From: Octopus vulgaris
Taxonomy: Eukaryota
NCBI GenBank assembly: GCA_951406725.2
Contig: OX597815.1
Span: forward strand, 202,802,001 to 202,866,000
Direction of reading: 5' to 3'
DNA: 64,000 bases
The notes under the pieces were generated by a model. That model did not search any database. It was given only the letters and a program-made list of their open reading frames with translations, and had not been told where the DNA came from. Both the position numbers and the translations under genes were made by a program. How positions within the stretch are numbered: the first letter of the stretch is position 1; each line of letters opens with the position of its first letter. Of this stretch, positions 11,128-17,790 are shown piece by piece.

Positions 11128-11679
11128 ATATTTATAATAGGATTAGCTCGTATACGAGTAGGTATATATTTGTAAAAAATGAAGTTCGAAAATGCTGCTG
11201 TATTATACAATTTTTAATTTTTATATATATACATTATAACATGTTTCAGTTCCTGAAATGAACTTTATCAAAAAAAGTTATTTATAAAAAAAGACAGCTC
11301 ATGCCGTCAAACACAAGAAATTCATTTATAATACACAACGGAGTCAGACATCTTAGAGTTCATGTATAGTTGATATATAGTTCATGTATAGTTGATATAT
11401 AGTTTGAAGTATATGTTCAAAGTGTTCGATGCAGTGGCCCACGGTGGCGATACGTATTCAATACAAAAAACAGATCAAAGTGGTGGAAAGCGGTCAATAC
11501 AGAAGATTGATGTTTCCGAAAGAGCGAGGAATTCATTTTTACCTTAAGCAAATGTGATGACCCATGGTGGATGTTCGCTGGGTGGTTCTAATGAGTTTTT
11601 GTGAAGTGTTCGGTTTTATAATGCCTGTTAGGTGGTCAATTCAGCGTAGCGTGACGTCATCAACGTTTTGACCAATCGT
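11128..11679 (-). repeat. 3' pseudo-LTR of the PLE
   Basis: Virtually identical to 15938-16489 (offset 4810 bp). Confidence 0.95.
11231..11278 (-). ncRNA. Variant hammerhead candidate (U3-A8 core) in the pseudo-LTR
   Basis: Sense strand TTGATAA-AGTTC ATTTCAG GAACT-GAAA-CATGT-T; perfect 5-bp stem II, palindromic stem III ACATGT, weak stem I. Confidence 0.5.
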
Positions 11680-12078
11680 TTCGTTAGGTGGCTTTAGTCA
11701 AGTAGAACGGGACGTCATCATTATTTTGACCAATCGCTGCATTATAACTGCCTATTGTTTGTTTTCCTGTTTTGACCAGTCGCTTCGTTAGTCAAGTAGA
11801 ACGGGACGTCATCATTATTTTGACCAATCGCTGCATTATAACTGCCTCTTGTTTGTTTCCTGTCCTGACCAGTCGCTTCGTTAGTCAAGCAGAACGGGAC
11901 GTCATGCAGATTCTGCCCAATCACGACTTATAGCTACATTAGATCTGCCCCCTGTCTGTACTTGTTAGGTGACTATTCAAGCAGAAAAGGACGTCATCAA
12001 TATTCTGACTAATGACTGTCCCCTGTTTGTATCCTGTCCATTCTAGCTGAGCTAGACGTCATCAACTTGTTGACCAAT
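11652..12078. promoter_or_regulatory. Array of six GACGTCA-N12-CCAAT modules (CRE/ATF + NF-Y like) in the PLE 3' region
   Basis: GACGTCA at 11653, 11711, 11805, 11898, 11990, 12055, each followed 19 nt later by CCAAT (CTAAT once); includes ~94-bp tandem units. Confidence 0.55.
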
Positions 12079-12248: not shown

Positions 12249-14546
12249 TTAGTATTCCTGGCCCAGGGTGTTTAAACTTGGTCTAAATTTTTTTATGAAA
12301 TATAGTTCTTTATTTTGGCGTTGTGTGAAGGTTGCGTTGTCACTGAATTTATAGAGCGGGTTAGTTGTAAATTTCGGATTTACATTTCCAGCACATCTAT
12401 CTATGTGTCCGCTGACCGGTATTTTGCGGTAATCAGGGTTTCTAATTTGTGATTTATGCACCGCCATCCTGTTACGTAAGCTATTTTTTGTATGGCCTAT
12501 ATACTGCCTATTGCAGCCTGCGCATGTTATGACGTAAATTAAGTTTTCTGATGCGCAGGTGAAGTTTGTTCTAATGGTGAACTGGTGGCCTTGTTCCAGT
12601 ATAAATTCTGATCCTTCTTTCAAGATGACACAGATTCCGCAGTTGGGCCTTCCACATTTTCTAACTGCTGGTTTTGTGGTTGATGTTGAGTGCAGTGTAG
12701 CTTGGGTTAAAATCCTTTTCAAGGATTTTGGTTGCCGTTTACTTTTAATGATGGTGTGTGTTTCGAGGATCCGGTTCATCTTTGGGTCTCCCTTTAGTAG
12801 GGCTGTGCTTTGTAGTATGGTGTTGAAGGCCTCATTGTTGAGTGGGTTGTGTGTAGAAATGTAGGGAAGGGTTTTTAATTGTTCTTTCTTTTTTGGTTTT
12901 GTTTGTCTCAGGTCTTCTATACTTAATTTAAGTACCCGTTGGATTGCACTGTCTATTAGGGGCTGTGGATAGTTTCTATTTGTGAGTGTGGTTCTAAGTT
13001 CCTGGAGACGTGTGTGTCGGGTGTTTGTGTCTGATATTATGGTGCAAATCCTTCTAGCTAAACAAAAAGGGACATTCATTCTAGTGTGTCGTGGGTGGAA
13101 TGAATCAAAGGGTAGGTACTGTTTAGAGTCTGTCGGTTTATAGTAGATATCTGTCTCTATTTTGTTGCCGGTTTTCTTAATGAGGATGTCTAAAAATGGT
13201 AATTCTTTTTCGTTGTGGTCCATCGTGAATTGTATATTGTCATTTATTCCATTTAATAGTATTTTAAATTCCTCAAGTTTCTCTATACCTTTGTCCCAGA
13301 TGATGAAACAGTCATCGAGGTATCTTTTCCTGTTGTTATGGATATAGGTGGCGAAGGGGTTTCCATATTTCTCGAGTGTCATCCGGTATAGTATTTTCTC
13401 GAGGTATCCCATCACTAGGTTGGCAAAAGATGGTGCAGTACGCGTGCCCATCGCTATTCCCGATCTTTGCCTGTAGAAATCATTGTCAAAAATAAAATAA
13501 TTGTTCTCTAAAATGAATCTAAGTCCTTCTATTATAAGGTCTTTGTTTATGCGAGTTGGGAGTTCAAAGGGGTAGTTATTCAGCCAGAAGGTGATCGCTT
13601 CTATTCCTAGGTTGTGAGGGATGTTAGAATAAAGATTAACTACGTCGAATGATACTAGAAGGGTTTTCTCATTGACTGTTTTAGGGAGGTGGTTGAGCAT
13701 ATCTATATCGTCTCTTACGTAGCTTTTGATGTGTTTTAGGAAAGGTTTAAGAAGTGTGTCTAAGAAATTGCTGAGGCGGTGAGTTTCACATGCTGGTCCT
13801 GCTATTATCGGTCTTAGTTTAAGATCATTTGGTGAAGGGATTTTGATGAGTGTGTCGGTGGATGTTTTGCACGTTTCTCTAATGGTTTGGCTTTTGTGTA
13901 CCTTAGGGATACCATAGAACAAACTCGATTTGCATTTGAAGTTAGTGATGTATTCATACTCCTTGTTCGTGAGTCCTTCTTGGTATGTGTTGATTAATGT
14001 CCTAAGGTTATGCATTATTTTTTGCTGGTTATACTGTTGGGCCCTTTCATAATACGTTTCATCTCTTAATAGGGATAGCACTAAATTTTTATAATTGTTT
14101 GTATTCATTATTACTATCGCGTTGCCCTTATCTGCCTCCTTAATTGTTATTGTTTTGTCTTCTCTTAGTTTGATGAGGTCGTTCCATTCTCTTTTGTTGA
14201 AGTTAGGGCTGTGTTTTTGTTTCTTGATGAATTGAAACGGGAAATTAGTTATGTAGTCACAATAGCGGTCTAAGGCTTTATTCTTACCTTTGGTGGGGGT
14301 GTAATTGCTCTTGTTTCTAGCTATTGAGTCCTCCTCTATTTGTTTGTCTTGAAATGCCTCGGTGAGTCTTAGTTTTCTGCAAAATTCCGAAATATCATCT
14401 TTCATTTCATAGTAATTAGAACGTTGTGGGGTGGGTGTAAATTTAAGTCCTCTGGAGAGTATGCTTATTTCGTTAGGTGTAAGTTCTTTGTTTGAGAGAT
14501 TGATTATCTTAATTACCTGAGGTTTCTTTTGTTTGTCCTTTGCCAT
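12249..14546 (-). CDS. PLE reverse transcriptase + GIY-YIG endonuclease (765 aa)
   Basis: N-terminal INLS..LT..E..ILSRGLKF.P, ADKGN, FYGIPKVHK, LRPII, SFDVVNLYSNIP, GIAMGT..AP, RYLDD, LPFLDI, YYKPT; CGRPNCGIC linker; LIYVITC..C..QYIG.T..LRNRM..H. Confidence 0.97.
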   Translation of the reverse strand: MAKDKQKKPQVIKIINLSNKELTPNEISILSRGLKFTPTPQRSNYYEMKDDISEFCRKLRLTEAFQDKQIEEDSIARNKSNYTPTKGKNKALDRYCDYITNFPFQFIKKQKHSPNFNKREWNDLIKLREDKTITIKEADKGNAIVIMNTNNYKNLVLSLLRDETYYERAQQYNQQKIMHNLRTLINTYQEGLTNKEYEYITNFKCKSSLFYGIPKVHKSQTIRETCKTSTDTLIKIPSPNDLKLRPIIAGPACETHRLSNFLDTLLKPFLKHIKSYVRDDIDMLNHLPKTVNEKTLLVSFDVVNLYSNIPHNLGIEAITFWLNNYPFELPTRINKDLIIEGLRFILENNYFIFDNDFYRQRSGIAMGTRTAPSFANLVMGYLEKILYRMTLEKYGNPFATYIHNNRKRYLDDCFIIWDKGIEKLEEFKILLNGINDNIQFTMDHNEKELPFLDILIKKTGNKIETDIYYKPTDSKQYLPFDSFHPRHTRMNVPFCLARRICTIISDTNTRHTRLQELRTTLTNRNYPQPLIDSAIQRVLKLSIEDLRQTKPKKKEQLKTLPYISTHNPLNNEAFNTILQSTALLKGDPKMNRILETHTIIKSKRQPKSLKRILTQATLHSTSTTKPAVRKCGRPNCGICVILKEGSEFILEQGHQFTIRTNFTCASENLIYVITCAGCNRQYIGHTKNSLRNRMAVHKSQIRNPDYRKIPVSGHIDRCAGNVNPKFTTNPLYKFSDNATFTQRQNKELYFIKKFRPSLNTLGQEY

Positions 14547-15913
14547 CGTGTGTCCCTGTTCCTGTGTGTGGGGTCTAAAAAATGGTTGGTGTAGTTATGT
14601 TCAAAGCTATTATTTATCTGTATCATGTTGTTATAATTGTCAGAGTGAGTTTGTGGTGCTCTGTTCTGGAGTCTGTTGTTGAACCTAGTGTTCCGTCTTA
14701 GTTCCTCAGGTATATTGTGTTGGTAGTTGTTTCCTCCGTAGTGCATTTGTTGTTTGTTATGGTTGTATGGTTGGTTCCTGGGGTGGATGTTTGGTAGTAG
14801 CGTTTTGGTTTGGTTATGTGGGTTGTATTTTATAGTATTGTATGTTGTGGCTCTTAGGTTCGTGGAATGGTGTGGTGGGACCCTATAAGTGTTTTGGGGT
14901 TGGTGTAGGTAGTGTGGGGTGCGTTTTAAATGCATTTTTCTGGTGTAGAGTGTGTTTGGATTTCTTGGTGGTTGTTCTGCTCTGTTGGTATGTCTATTTT
15001 CGAACTGGTGTGGTGGGCTTCTGTAGGTGTTTTGGGGTTGTTGTAGGTAGTGTGGGGTGTGTTTTAGGTGTACTTTTCTGGTGTAGAGTGTGGTAGGATT
15101 TCTTGGTGGTTGTTCCGTTCTGTTGGTATTTGGTTTTGATTTGCTTAATTTTATGAAGGGGTTGTTGGATATGTGTTAGTTTTTGAAGTTGGTTTCATAA
15201 TCTAGAAACCAGATGGCGCTCTTTTCCCATCGTTGGAGAGACTTAAGTTCCTCTTTTTCACATTCTTCATTCCATAGTGCTGGTAATGTTTCAGTATTGT
15301 TGTCGTCTATTAGTTTGATGACTTCTTCGTTGATTTCCTCGTCTATGGTTTTTACTTTTTCTTCATTCGTTTTAGCTCTCAGCTTAAGTAGTTCTATTTC
15401 CATCTTCATTTTTTCTAATGACATTTTTTCTCTAAGTTTTCTTTGTTCTTCTGGTTCTTCCGAGATGGGTTTGATTTGTAATTTACGGGGTATGACTAGG
15501 GGTGTTGAGTCTAGCCATTTTTGGTAAATCTCTGCTTTATTCTGATTTTGTATCATTTTCCAAAAAGCGAATTTTCTGTTTCGCTGTAGTGTTCTCCATT
15601 GGGGGAGGACTTGGTTCTTTATTTGTAACGTTGAAGTTGCTCGGTTCTTCTCATGTGTTCCTTCTTTTTGTTGCTCTTGTTTCGTAAAGTTTGTGAAGAA
15701 TGTCGTCATTGTATCGCATAGATTTTCAACTTTATCGAATGTTTCGGAGGGTGTTTTATTCGATTCGGTTTCCTCGTTAGTTTGTGTAGAAGGTCGAGGT
15801 GTTAAGTTGAGTTTGTTTAACACTGCTGTTAGGTTTGAATTTATGCTTTTCAATTCTTTCAGTATCTCTTCATTTATTGAGGAGATGTCGTTGGTGTCTT
15901 TTTTAGCAGGCAT
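14513..15913 (-). CDS. PLE ORF1: coiled-coil N-half plus N/Q/H/P-rich C-half, interrupted by one TAA at 15176-15178
   Basis: Track ORFs 15176-15913 and 14513-14935 share a frame, and my hand translation of 15175-14936 has no stop; heptad-like E/K/L segments; overlaps the RT ORF. Confidence 0.75.
14576..14582 (-). other. Candidate -1 programmed ribosomal frameshift site U_UUU_UUA
   Basis: ORF1 reads CAT TTT TTA GAC; the -1 frame continues AGA CCC CAC ACA CAG GAA CAG GGA CAC ACG ATG GCA into the RT ORF. Confidence 0.6.
14860..15130 (-). repeat. 138-bp (46-aa) in-frame tandem duplication in ORF1
   Basis: TNRTEQPPRNPTTLYTRKVHLKHTPHYLQQPQNTYRSPPH followed by TNRAEQPPRNPNTLYTRKMHLKRTPHYLHQPQNTYRVPPH. 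Confidence 0.9.
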
Positions 15914-15937: not shown

Positions 15938-16489
15938 ATATTTATAATAGGATTAGCTCGTATACGAGTAGGTATATATTTGTAAAAAATGAAGTTCGAA
16001 AATGCTGCTGTATTATACAATTTTTAATTTTTATATATATACATTATAACATGTTTCAGTTCCTGAAATGAACTTAATCAAAAAAAGTTATTTATAAAAA
16101 AAGACAGCTCATGCCGTCAAACACAAGAAATTCATTTATAATACACAACGGAGTCAGACATCTTAGAGTTCATGTATAGTTGATATATAGTTCATGTATA
16201 GTTGATATATAGTTTGAAGTATATGTTCAAAGTGTTCGATGCAGTGGCCCACGGTGGCGATACGTATTCAATACAAAAAACAGATCAAAGTGGTGGAAAG
16301 CGGTCAATACAGAAGATTGATGTTTCCGAAAGAGCGAGGAATTCATTTTTACCTTAAGCAAATGTGATGACCCATGGTGGATGTTCGCTGGGTGGTTCTA
16401 ATGAGTTTTTGTGAAGTGTTCGGTTTTATAATGCCTGTTAGGTGGTCAATTCAGCGTAGCGTGACGTCATCAACGTTTTGACCAATCGT
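15938..16489 (-). repeat. 5' pseudo-LTR of the PLE
   Basis: Direct repeat of 11128-11679; ends about 25 nt before the ORF1 ATG. Confidence 0.95.
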
Positions 16490-16720
16490 ATATATCAACT
16501 ATACATGAACTATATATCAACTATACATGAACTCTAAGATGTCTGACTCCGTTGTGTATTATAAATGAATTTCTTGTGTTTGACGGCATGAGCTGTCTTT
16601 GTTTATATATAACTTTTTTTGATAAAGTTCATTTCAGGAACTGAAACATGTTATAATGTATATATATAAAAATTAAAAATTGTATAATACAGCAGCATTT
16701 TCGAACTTCATTTTTTACAA

Positions 16721-16724
<4 letters not shown>
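16490..16724 (+). repeat. Inverted partial pseudo-LTR
   Basis: Reverse complement of ~15976-16210; contains the variant hammerhead at ~16612-16660. Confidence 0.9.
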
Positions 16725-16751
<27 letters not shown>

Positions 16752-17195
16752 CTAGTTGAGGATGCCGTTATTGCCGGGCAATTTTCACAATAGATTGCCT
16801 TGGCGGATTTCGGAATAGCACACCCACATATATTAGATTTCGTTCATTTTGACAGGAATTTTAACATCTTTCTTATTTTTTATCACCACAGATTTGAAAA
16901 TGATGGAGAAAAACATTCTATGAAAAAATATGCTTGGAAATTTATGATTCCCAGTCCCACTTCCCGACCCGTTTTGTCCAATTTTTATTTTGTCCTATGT
17001 ACTTACAAACAATGGGAGACGCCCTTTCGGTAAAAGATGAAAATTAAAAATTAGAAAATTTATGAGTTTTTCAAACACCATCCACCACTTAATACCGCTT
17101 TTGGCTAATTTTTTTTTTGCACGTCGCCCTCATGAAATTCCCAACACACATGCGTACACACACTGACAAACTCTCACACAGTGTGAACGATTTTA
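16752..17195 (-). mobile_element. Non-autonomous Helitron-like element
   Basis: Minus strand ends CCCGGCAATAACGGCATCCTCAACTAG|T (hairpin + CTAG); 5' boundary uncertain. Confidence 0.45.
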
Positions 17196-17199
17196 TGGT

Positions 17200-17790
17200 T
17201 CATTTACGCACAATGAATGAAACTGGACTCCATAATTATGACCTCTAGAACAAGCAGCAATCAAGGAAGTGGTGTCACAGCGGTTCACCACATCACAGAA
17301 TGTTTCGGATCCGGAAGTCAACTAAAAAGATGCTGACTTCAGTGTTCTGTAACAAAGTCGGAGTGCTGCTCATAAAATACCTATCAAAGGGTCACACTAT
17401 CAACGTAGAATACTACACACCTCTGTTGGACGAACTGCGAGAAGCTGTGAAGCAGAAACTCCGTAGAAAGCTGAGCCGTAACGTCCTGTTTTTGCAGGAC
17501 TGTTCACCAGCACACACAGCACTTGAAACTCTACGGAAAATACACGATTTTGTTTTCCAAATGGTAGACCACCCACTTTAATCTCCTGACTTGTATCCCT
17601 CTGACTATCACCTCTTCCCACGACTGAGGAAACATCCCAAGGGAAAGAAATTTCACTCCGCTTCGGAAGTGATCGCTGTTACAAAGATCTGGTTGAAGGC
17701 CCGACCTTCCGAGTTTTTTTACAAGGCTTAGAAAAACTGAAGGACCACTGCAATAAGTTTGTGAATCTGAGAAAGAAATATGTTCAATAA
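17200..17790 (+). pseudogene. Mariner (DD34D) transposase remnant
   Basis: KKMLTSVF...GHTINVEYY...LREAVKQK...VLFLQDCSPAHTA...HPL*SPDLYPSDYHLFP.L. Confidence 0.88.

Follow-up and report, generated by a model that had tools for sequence, protein, structure and literature searches.

A stretch of 64,000 nucleotides (nt) from Octopus vulgaris (assembly GCA_951406725.2, contig OX597815.1, positions 202,802,001 to 202,866,000 of the forward strand), referred to here as the window, contains one full Penelope-like element (PLE) on the minus strand, inserted in a (TA)n target. From its frames and domains, the element is identified as a PLE retrotransposon with two open reading frames (ORFs) and an endonuclease (EN+). 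The first frame, ORF1 (14513..15913, minus strand, as for all features below unless stated otherwise), has 466 codons in intact copies and encodes N-terminal helices, a three-helix core at approximately residues 87-246, and a disordered tail rich in N, Q, H, P and R. The second frame (12249..14594) lies in the -1 frame relative to ORF1 and is open over 781 codons from stop to stop, encoding a reverse transcriptase (RT; RVT_1) followed at the C terminus by an endonuclease of the GIY-YIG type. It is closed upstream by a TAA at 14595..14597, four codons above the heptamer T_TTT_TTA at 14576..14582. In the phase of ORF1 this heptamer codes for Phe-Leu, and the ORF1 stop TAA (14513..14515) follows 20 codons later. 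The next base is G, so that the heptamer also reads as a pyrimidine tract followed by AG.

An earlier note on this DNA had proposed that the two frames are joined at a slippery site, and its reading of the junction holds in detail. The minus strand at 14584-14573 is CAT TTT TTA GAC, which places the heptamer (14582-14576) in exact X_XXY_YYZ phase of ORF1, and the -1 frame that opens directly after the TAA (14597-14595) is indeed the RT frame. The estimated ORF1-RT-endonuclease fusion of about 1221 codons is reproduced as 446 + 775 codons. This count passes through a premature ORF1 stop at 15176..15178, which is private to the window copy: a sense codon stands there in all 21 other copies covering the position, and a 466-residue ORF1 is open in seven distinct copies. 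The T6 run, described as unusual in a T-poor strand, is the only six-T run in the 3665-nt sense coding strand, whose T fraction is 0.19 (0.15 in ORF1). ORF1 holds seven X_XXY_YYZ heptamers, two of them in phase, T_TTT_TTA being one.

The family is young, with approximately 99% identity among copies, and the window copy is defective in ORF1. Thirty copies were fetched, the top 30 of 40 scored from 687 candidates. Across the junction (14605-14540) none of the 30 has an indel, and the heptamer is intact in 29. The earlier note had allowed that a family consensus might place ORF1 and RT in one frame or that the heptamer might not be conserved; instead, the frames differ throughout the family, and conservation of the phased heptamer reaches well outside it. 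A broken single-ORF element, with the offset due to an indel or the T run to chance, would be compatible with the other lesion of the window copy, the stop at 15178. This reading is refuted, as all copies and the distant families show the same offset and a phased heptamer; practically no weight is left for it.

The element in the window probably uses programmed -1 ribosomal frameshifting (PRF) at U_UUU_UUA to make an ORF1-RT-endonuclease fusion. A minority of ribosomes would slip back by one base on the heptamer at the end of ORF1 and produce the fusion, while most would stop and release ORF1 protein alone, at a ratio presumably resembling that of gag and pol. U_UUU_UUA is the gag-pol shift site of human immunodeficiency virus type 1 (HIV-1). 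The element shares with HIV-1 the heptamer and a structural ORF fused to a polymerase, but it has no detectable counterpart of the viral 3' stem-loop, and it lacks a long terminal repeat (LTR), a protease and an integrase. Of the classical features of -1 PRF, the in-phase X_XXY_YYZ heptamer within a -1 overlap is present, and a hairpin or pseudoknot 5-9 nt downstream is not predicted. The gag-pol-like expression of ORF1 and RT that the earlier note suggested for an EN+ PLE is supported at the sequence level by the offset frames and the conserved phased heptamer, from which we infer the slip itself.

Four further families in the octopus genome have the same overlap, namely B (L067), C (L113), D (L123) and E (L243), the window family being A. 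The heptamer is T_TTT_TTA-G in B, C and D, and T_TTT_TTT-AC in E. The RT N-terminus of family B is 67% identical to that of the window family. In B, C and D the ORF1 stop lies 10 codons past Phe-Leu, and all four families lack an ATG ahead of the first RT motif. Among 52 external loci with a match to the RT N-terminus, 13 have a phased heptamer, in 12 cases at the end of an upstream ORF, and these 12 include all six loci with an ORF1 profile match. The other 39 are mostly single-ORF elements or broken. The phased heptamer of L163 was rejected as a chance occurrence inside a single ORF. A phased T_TTT_TT(A/G/T) is kept in the four other genome families and the 12 external loci, among proteins of about 25-50% identity. 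Two of the 12, L150 and L151, stand apart on the RT tree and carry the heptamer after an unrelated esterase-like ORF1. These frames (L150:1-975, L151:1917-3845) resemble SGNH esterases with a DGxH motif and stop 11 and 10 codons after the heptamer, respectively. Across these comparisons the phase-locked slippery site is a real and ancient property of a widespread two-ORF EN+ PLE group. In 18 junctions, which were selected for carrying the heptamer, the AG is missing from six and an ATG before the first RT motif from 15. As most relatives have no such ATG, independent initiation cannot be the general route to the RT.

Seven copies of family E (L233, L234, L235, L236, L237, L238 and L247) have ORF1 and RT in one frame, produced by A-run indels near the junction or by a 17-nt deletion. 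An active fused lineage finds no support, as the fused copies share no private substitutions. Together with the homopolymer run, such fusions could recall transcriptional slippage, in which RNA polymerase stutters at the T run and adds a base, giving a share of mRNAs with a fused frame. Cis-preference should then enrich the longer run, yet motifs with six T outnumber those with seven by 139 to 1 genome-wide. The family E fusions trace back to A-run indels or a deletion and not to the T run, and no private changes unite them; in addition, slippage of this kind does not require the codon phase. It is regarded as very improbable.

The ORF1 proteins offer a sample that was not picked for the heptamer. 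It comprises the 150 best of 551 ORF1 relatives (E 0.001, 50% clustering) and those from a further search. Of the 91 relatives of at least 290 residues, 73 have Phe-Leu within the last 45 residues, compared with 5 and 7 in two upstream control windows, and the dipeptide sits in a tail that otherwise cannot be aligned. In the 73 proteins Phe-Leu is always preceded by a residue for which a codon ending in T exists (H, S, R, P, N, Y, D, L or G) and never by K, E, Q, M or W, in agreement with the T that starts the heptamer. The residue after Phe-Leu has a codon starting with G in 53 proteins, but not in 20. A slippery site requires this phase lock to ORF1 and a splice acceptor does not, which favours frameshifting. 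Fused ORF1-RT proteins were not found at E 0.001 among 449 long database candidates, which is weak evidence, and the viral contigs searched contained no relatives.

In the window family, the sequence T6-AG could alternatively be a 3' splice site. The element is bounded by direct repeats termed pseudo-LTRs (pLTRs), and by eye the 5' copy shows a TATA-like box (16430-16424), an ATG at 16375 in a strong Kozak context and a GT donor at 16352-16351 (together 16351..16430). An intron from this donor at 16352 to 14575 would remove ORF1 and join an 8-codon exon in frame to the RT, with ORF1 translated from unspliced RNA. A branch-like motif, the pyrimidine run and the AG are visible by eye, the ATG and GT are present in all ten full 5' pLTRs examined (one with a change just before the donor), and retention of pLTR introns is known for PLEs according to the available part of PMC8557442. 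The in-frame join would be expected in one of three cases anyway. The contigs examined come from six runs (X1, X2, X3, X4, X9 and X10) that were guessed to be RNA, none of the runs listed being recorded as such; a seventh, X13, gave no coverage. One X9 contig departs from the element at the pLTR donor, but no joint or loose end falls at 14574-14576, a weak negative because contigs drop rare forms. One 1529-nt contig of X3 crosses the site, and an X9 branch is unbroken over 14540-14601. Contig ends at 14572 and 14576 were considered as signs of splicing, but copy variants at 14571 and 14606 account for them. The base before the AG is T in every genomic copy, and no spliced genomic copies were found. 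An in-phase ATG with donor upstream of ORF1 is absent from families B and E, and C and D offer only scattered weak candidates. Splicing would also leave unexplained the phase lock to ORF1 and fails to account for the six of 18 junctions without AG; it is considered unlikely.

The same pLTR region has two further properties. The short frame at 16375-16349, with its ideal Kozak ATG and the donor inside, forms an 8-codon upstream ORF in the 5' untranslated region (UTR) and should throttle ORF1 translation. In run X9 the pLTR exon is joined to sequence outside the element, and solo pLTRs may drive chimeric transcripts.

A separate RT start is conceivable in the window family, where an ATG of the RT frame lies at 14544..14546. 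Ribosomes that finish ORF1 31 nt downstream would then reinitiate at this ATG, or the RT would start by internal initiation, and the heptamer would be a relic in this lineage. The earlier note had pointed out the good context of this ATG (ACGATGG), which is correct; the independent initiation it allowed for does not extend to the group, given the 15 junctions without ATG. The ATG is present in 29 of 30 copies and in L074, and absent in families B, C, D and E. It overlaps ORF1 codon 13 after Phe, which is Trp in the window family and in close relatives, some of whose RT calls start with Met, and a stop in most relatives with the ten-codon spacing. A change from stop to Trp at this codon would have created the ATG and pushed the stop to 20 codons, making the ATG explicable as a by-product. 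The lineage furthermore keeps Phe-Leu in phase (P0001, P0003, P0005, P0007 and P0012). This route is rated slightly lower than splicing, and either may supplement or replace frameshifting in the window family.

What would stimulate a -1 slip is a second question. The structure search relied on predictions and covered simple H-type pseudoknots. Folding of the sequence 3' of the heptamer in families A and B gave nothing above shuffles (z +1.3 to +1.7 for the window family), in agreement with the earlier note, which had seen no strong downstream hairpin. The distance to the ORF1 stop behaves differently. The stop lies exactly 10 codons past Phe-Leu in 25 of the 73 proteins and 11 codons in seven, and it is closer in none, where a geometric null expects 43.6 stops sooner than 10 codons and 2.6 at 10. 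The 25 ten-codon proteins are spread over 15 of 49 clusters, and their cores are 33% identical, their spacers 10%. Among ten-codon loci the distance from heptamer to RT motif varies from 51 to 195 nt, and the RT motif therefore does not dictate where the stop falls. Termination is weakened when the stop codon is followed by C, which is the case in seven of nine ten-codon loci compared with none of nine others (Fisher p 0.002, loci not independent). A 10-codon periodicity past the first peak (tails of 22 and 33) was not clear.

In approximately one third to one half of the relatives, a ribosome terminating 10 codons downstream could thus hold the next ribosome on the heptamer. That the terminating ribosome acts as the slip stimulator is a tentative proposal. 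In E. coli reporters, stalling of a ribosome at a slow stop increased -1 slipping on a heptad that lay 8-10 codons before the stop, with a peak at 9 (Smith et al. 2019, PMC6815119, in the text available). Both systems have a slippery heptad one ribosome length above a slow stop and no RNA stimulator; the reporter system is engineered and bacterial and peaks at 9 codons, while the PLE signal is natural, eukaryotic, spaced at 10 codons and predicted from sequence. Yeast ribosome collisions repeat at approximately 30 nt, as stated in the accessible text of PMC12852954. In coronaviruses, too, the position of a stop past the slippery site affects shifting, but that stop is 5 codons away and aids refolding of a pseudoknot (PMC8168617, consulted in part), whereas the PLE stop is 10 codons away and no pseudoknot was detected. 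For the window family, with its stop 20 codons on, a two-ribosome queue, an unstimulated slip at low rate, or help from the ATG or splicing would be needed. The wider proposal is that a widespread and old EN+ PLE group uses -1 frameshifting stimulated by a ribosome on a weak stop one ribosome length downstream, and not by RNA structure. This is judged possible at somewhat less than even chance. At the same tentative level, the group would be a naturally occurring example of collision-programmed frameshifting in eukaryotes, retained even where an esterase replaces ORF1.

Several observations weigh against these proposals. An unstimulated heptamer usually slips little, and no hairpin or pseudoknot was consistently above shuffles in the predictions for 13 junctions, the best z being -2.05 (L132). 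In 41 of 73 relatives, among them a large clade whose tails are G-rich, the stop is more than 11 codons away. On the tree the ten-codon label falls in clusters (10 changes versus 20.9 when shuffled), so that p-values from the geometric null are overstated. Phe-Leu is missing in 18 of the 91 proteins, four of which have Phe-Phe, and the match in P0125 falls in the core instead of the tail; among 61 shorter proteins, two have Phe-Leu fewer than 12 residues from the end. Close relatives seem to have the ATG of the window family too: P0167-P0171 open with a Met that lies 9-11 residues ahead of the first RT motif, a residue that gene callers also write for GTG and TTG. The window family is itself the least clean case, with a 20-codon stop, an ATG in the RT frame and an in-frame splice donor. 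Termination pausing is reported to trigger collisions only rarely in mammalian cells (PMC13341110, in its available part), and Bhatt et al. 2021 (PMC8168617), as far as its text was accessible, attribute the near-stop effect to pseudoknot refolding. Finally, the homology described below between ORF1 and the N-terminal domain of single-ORF PLEs is weak.

The clade with longer Gly/Arg-rich tails after Phe-Leu, and hence G-rich RNA, comprises P0021, P0026, P0029, P0030, P0044, P0047, P0071 and their kin. It may use RNA structure instead of the stop.

ORF1 may be a structural, RNA-binding protein of the ribonucleoprotein particle. Its AlphaFold model has high-confidence helices at 87-135, 155-201 and 204-246 and a disordered tail. 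No specific match was found in Pfam or the PDB and none in the Atlas; Foldseek gave nothing at E 0.001, and the only structural matches were generic helical bundles, with Z up to 9. In 11 single-ORF PLEs the N-terminal extension folds as helix, IP loop, helix and helix, the same layout as the ORF1 core; the two align in register but weakly (HHalign P 0.005, probability 7%). On these models, ORF1 is probably related to the N-terminal domain fused to the RT in single-ORF PLEs. If so, the slip would rebuild the domain order of those elements. A side feature of ORF1 is an in-frame 138-nt tandem duplication (14868-15129) that lengthens its tail; one copy, L026, is without one unit.

The remaining features of the element agree with EN+ PLEs of the Neptune and Nematis type. 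A Pfam search of the RT frame returned RVT_1 at E 8.7e-06, below the curated cut-off, and GIY-YIG at E 3.1e-06, above it. The endonuclease occupies residues 685-772 of the 781-codon frame, C-terminal to the RT, has its GIY-YIG core at 12495..12542 with two cysteines between the motifs, and contains a CCHH motif. A C-x4-C-x2-C motif lies in the linker (12630..12656), and CX2-5CxxC between RT and endonuclease is a Neptune and Nematis feature according to the available part of Craig et al. 2021 (PMC8557442). As described there, the shared features also include an RT with C-terminal GIY-YIG, the DKG motif, pLTRs with an inverted 5' fragment and the (TA)n target; a hammerhead-like motif is a possible further one. 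The 5' pLTR (15938..16489) and the 3' pLTR (11128..11679) are direct repeats with a spacing of 4810; the latter ends in the (TA)n target, and an inverted pLTR fragment of 239 nt (16489..16727, plus strand) at the 5' end adjoins (TA)n at 16728-16752. By eye, a minimal hammerhead-like motif with a U3-A8 core variant is seen at 11236..11280 and a second, with one core change, at about 16046-16090; an Rfam search gave no match for this motif. The U3-A8 variant has been described (PMC4209133, consulted in part).

In a quick, midpoint-rooted RT tree, eight two-ORF rows and L140/L141 form one branch with Shimodaira-Hasegawa (SH) support of 99; the tree held no named references to fix the clade of the element, and its named RT relatives come from bivalves. 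The two overlapping ORFs in all copies set the window family apart from canonical EN+ PLEs, which the abstract of PMC8557442 describes as single-ORF. Athena and Terminons lack an endonuclease and are associated with telomeric repeats, whereas this element has a GIY-YIG domain and a (TA)n insertion; in Naiad and Chlamys the endonuclease is N-terminal to the RT, here it is C-terminal.

Other sequences were encountered beside these features. The 3' UTR contains tandem repeats of about 93 nt (11633-12078), every one of them bearing a CCAAT-like box together with a TGACGTC site that resembles a cAMP response element, which stand just upstream of the TATA box of the next tandem copy. A 110-residue frame beside the element (17249-17581, plus strand) looks by eye like a fragment of a mariner transposase. 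L161, L168, L178, L197, L204 and L208 are a divergent, long-branch group of PLE-like RTs with basic N-terminal extensions of 270-300 residues and no detected endonuclease motif. L211-L220 are PLE contigs within bacterial metagenome-assembled genomes, probably host contamination, and part of them bear the annotation of a bacterial GIY-YIG protein (P0208).

T6A frameshifts between coiled-coil ORFs and RT have reportedly been found in endonuclease-less Athena/Terminon PLEs, and a frameshift-with-pseudoknot label in a published overview figure is one that we take to belong to the same elements. The figure legend (Fig. 1, PMC8557442) speaks of a PLE 'ORF1 separated by a frameshift with a pseudoknot' and gives no clade in its text; the figure may mark an ORF1 and frameshift on Neptune as well. 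As far as that source describes them, these PLEs also have a coiled-coil ORF1 upstream of the RT with a frameshift, while the element in the window has an endonuclease, no detectable pseudoknot and, in its relatives, a conserved stop distance instead. Extra upstream ORFs are likewise known from a killifish Neptune with two ORFs (PMC12602865), reported as non-overlapping, and from esterase-bearing Neptune-like PLEs (PMC5408684); the available parts of both reports describe no slippery site. A literature search whose scope excluded the Terminon (2017), Athena (2007), Arkhipova (2006) and Repbase reports found no slippery site in an EN+ PLE and no natural stop-spaced -1 signal, and the signal may have been described in print before. 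Set beside the PLE sources as far as accessible, the proposed frameshift would be a variant on the recorded PLE ORF1 frameshift with pseudoknot, the new parts being the element's own endonuclease and the stop distance as co-signal.

As EN+ PLEs are viewed as single-ORF, ORF1 would be overlooked and the RT given a wrong start by consensus models and gene calls in a large invertebrate group. The signal also points to a way in which PLEs may balance structural protein against RT. If the proposed mechanism is true, a structure-free, stop-spaced -1 signal with a length of about 45 nt would be a natural test of ribosome collisions as a programmed stimulator in eukaryotes, and RT output would be tied to ribosome load and collision surveillance.

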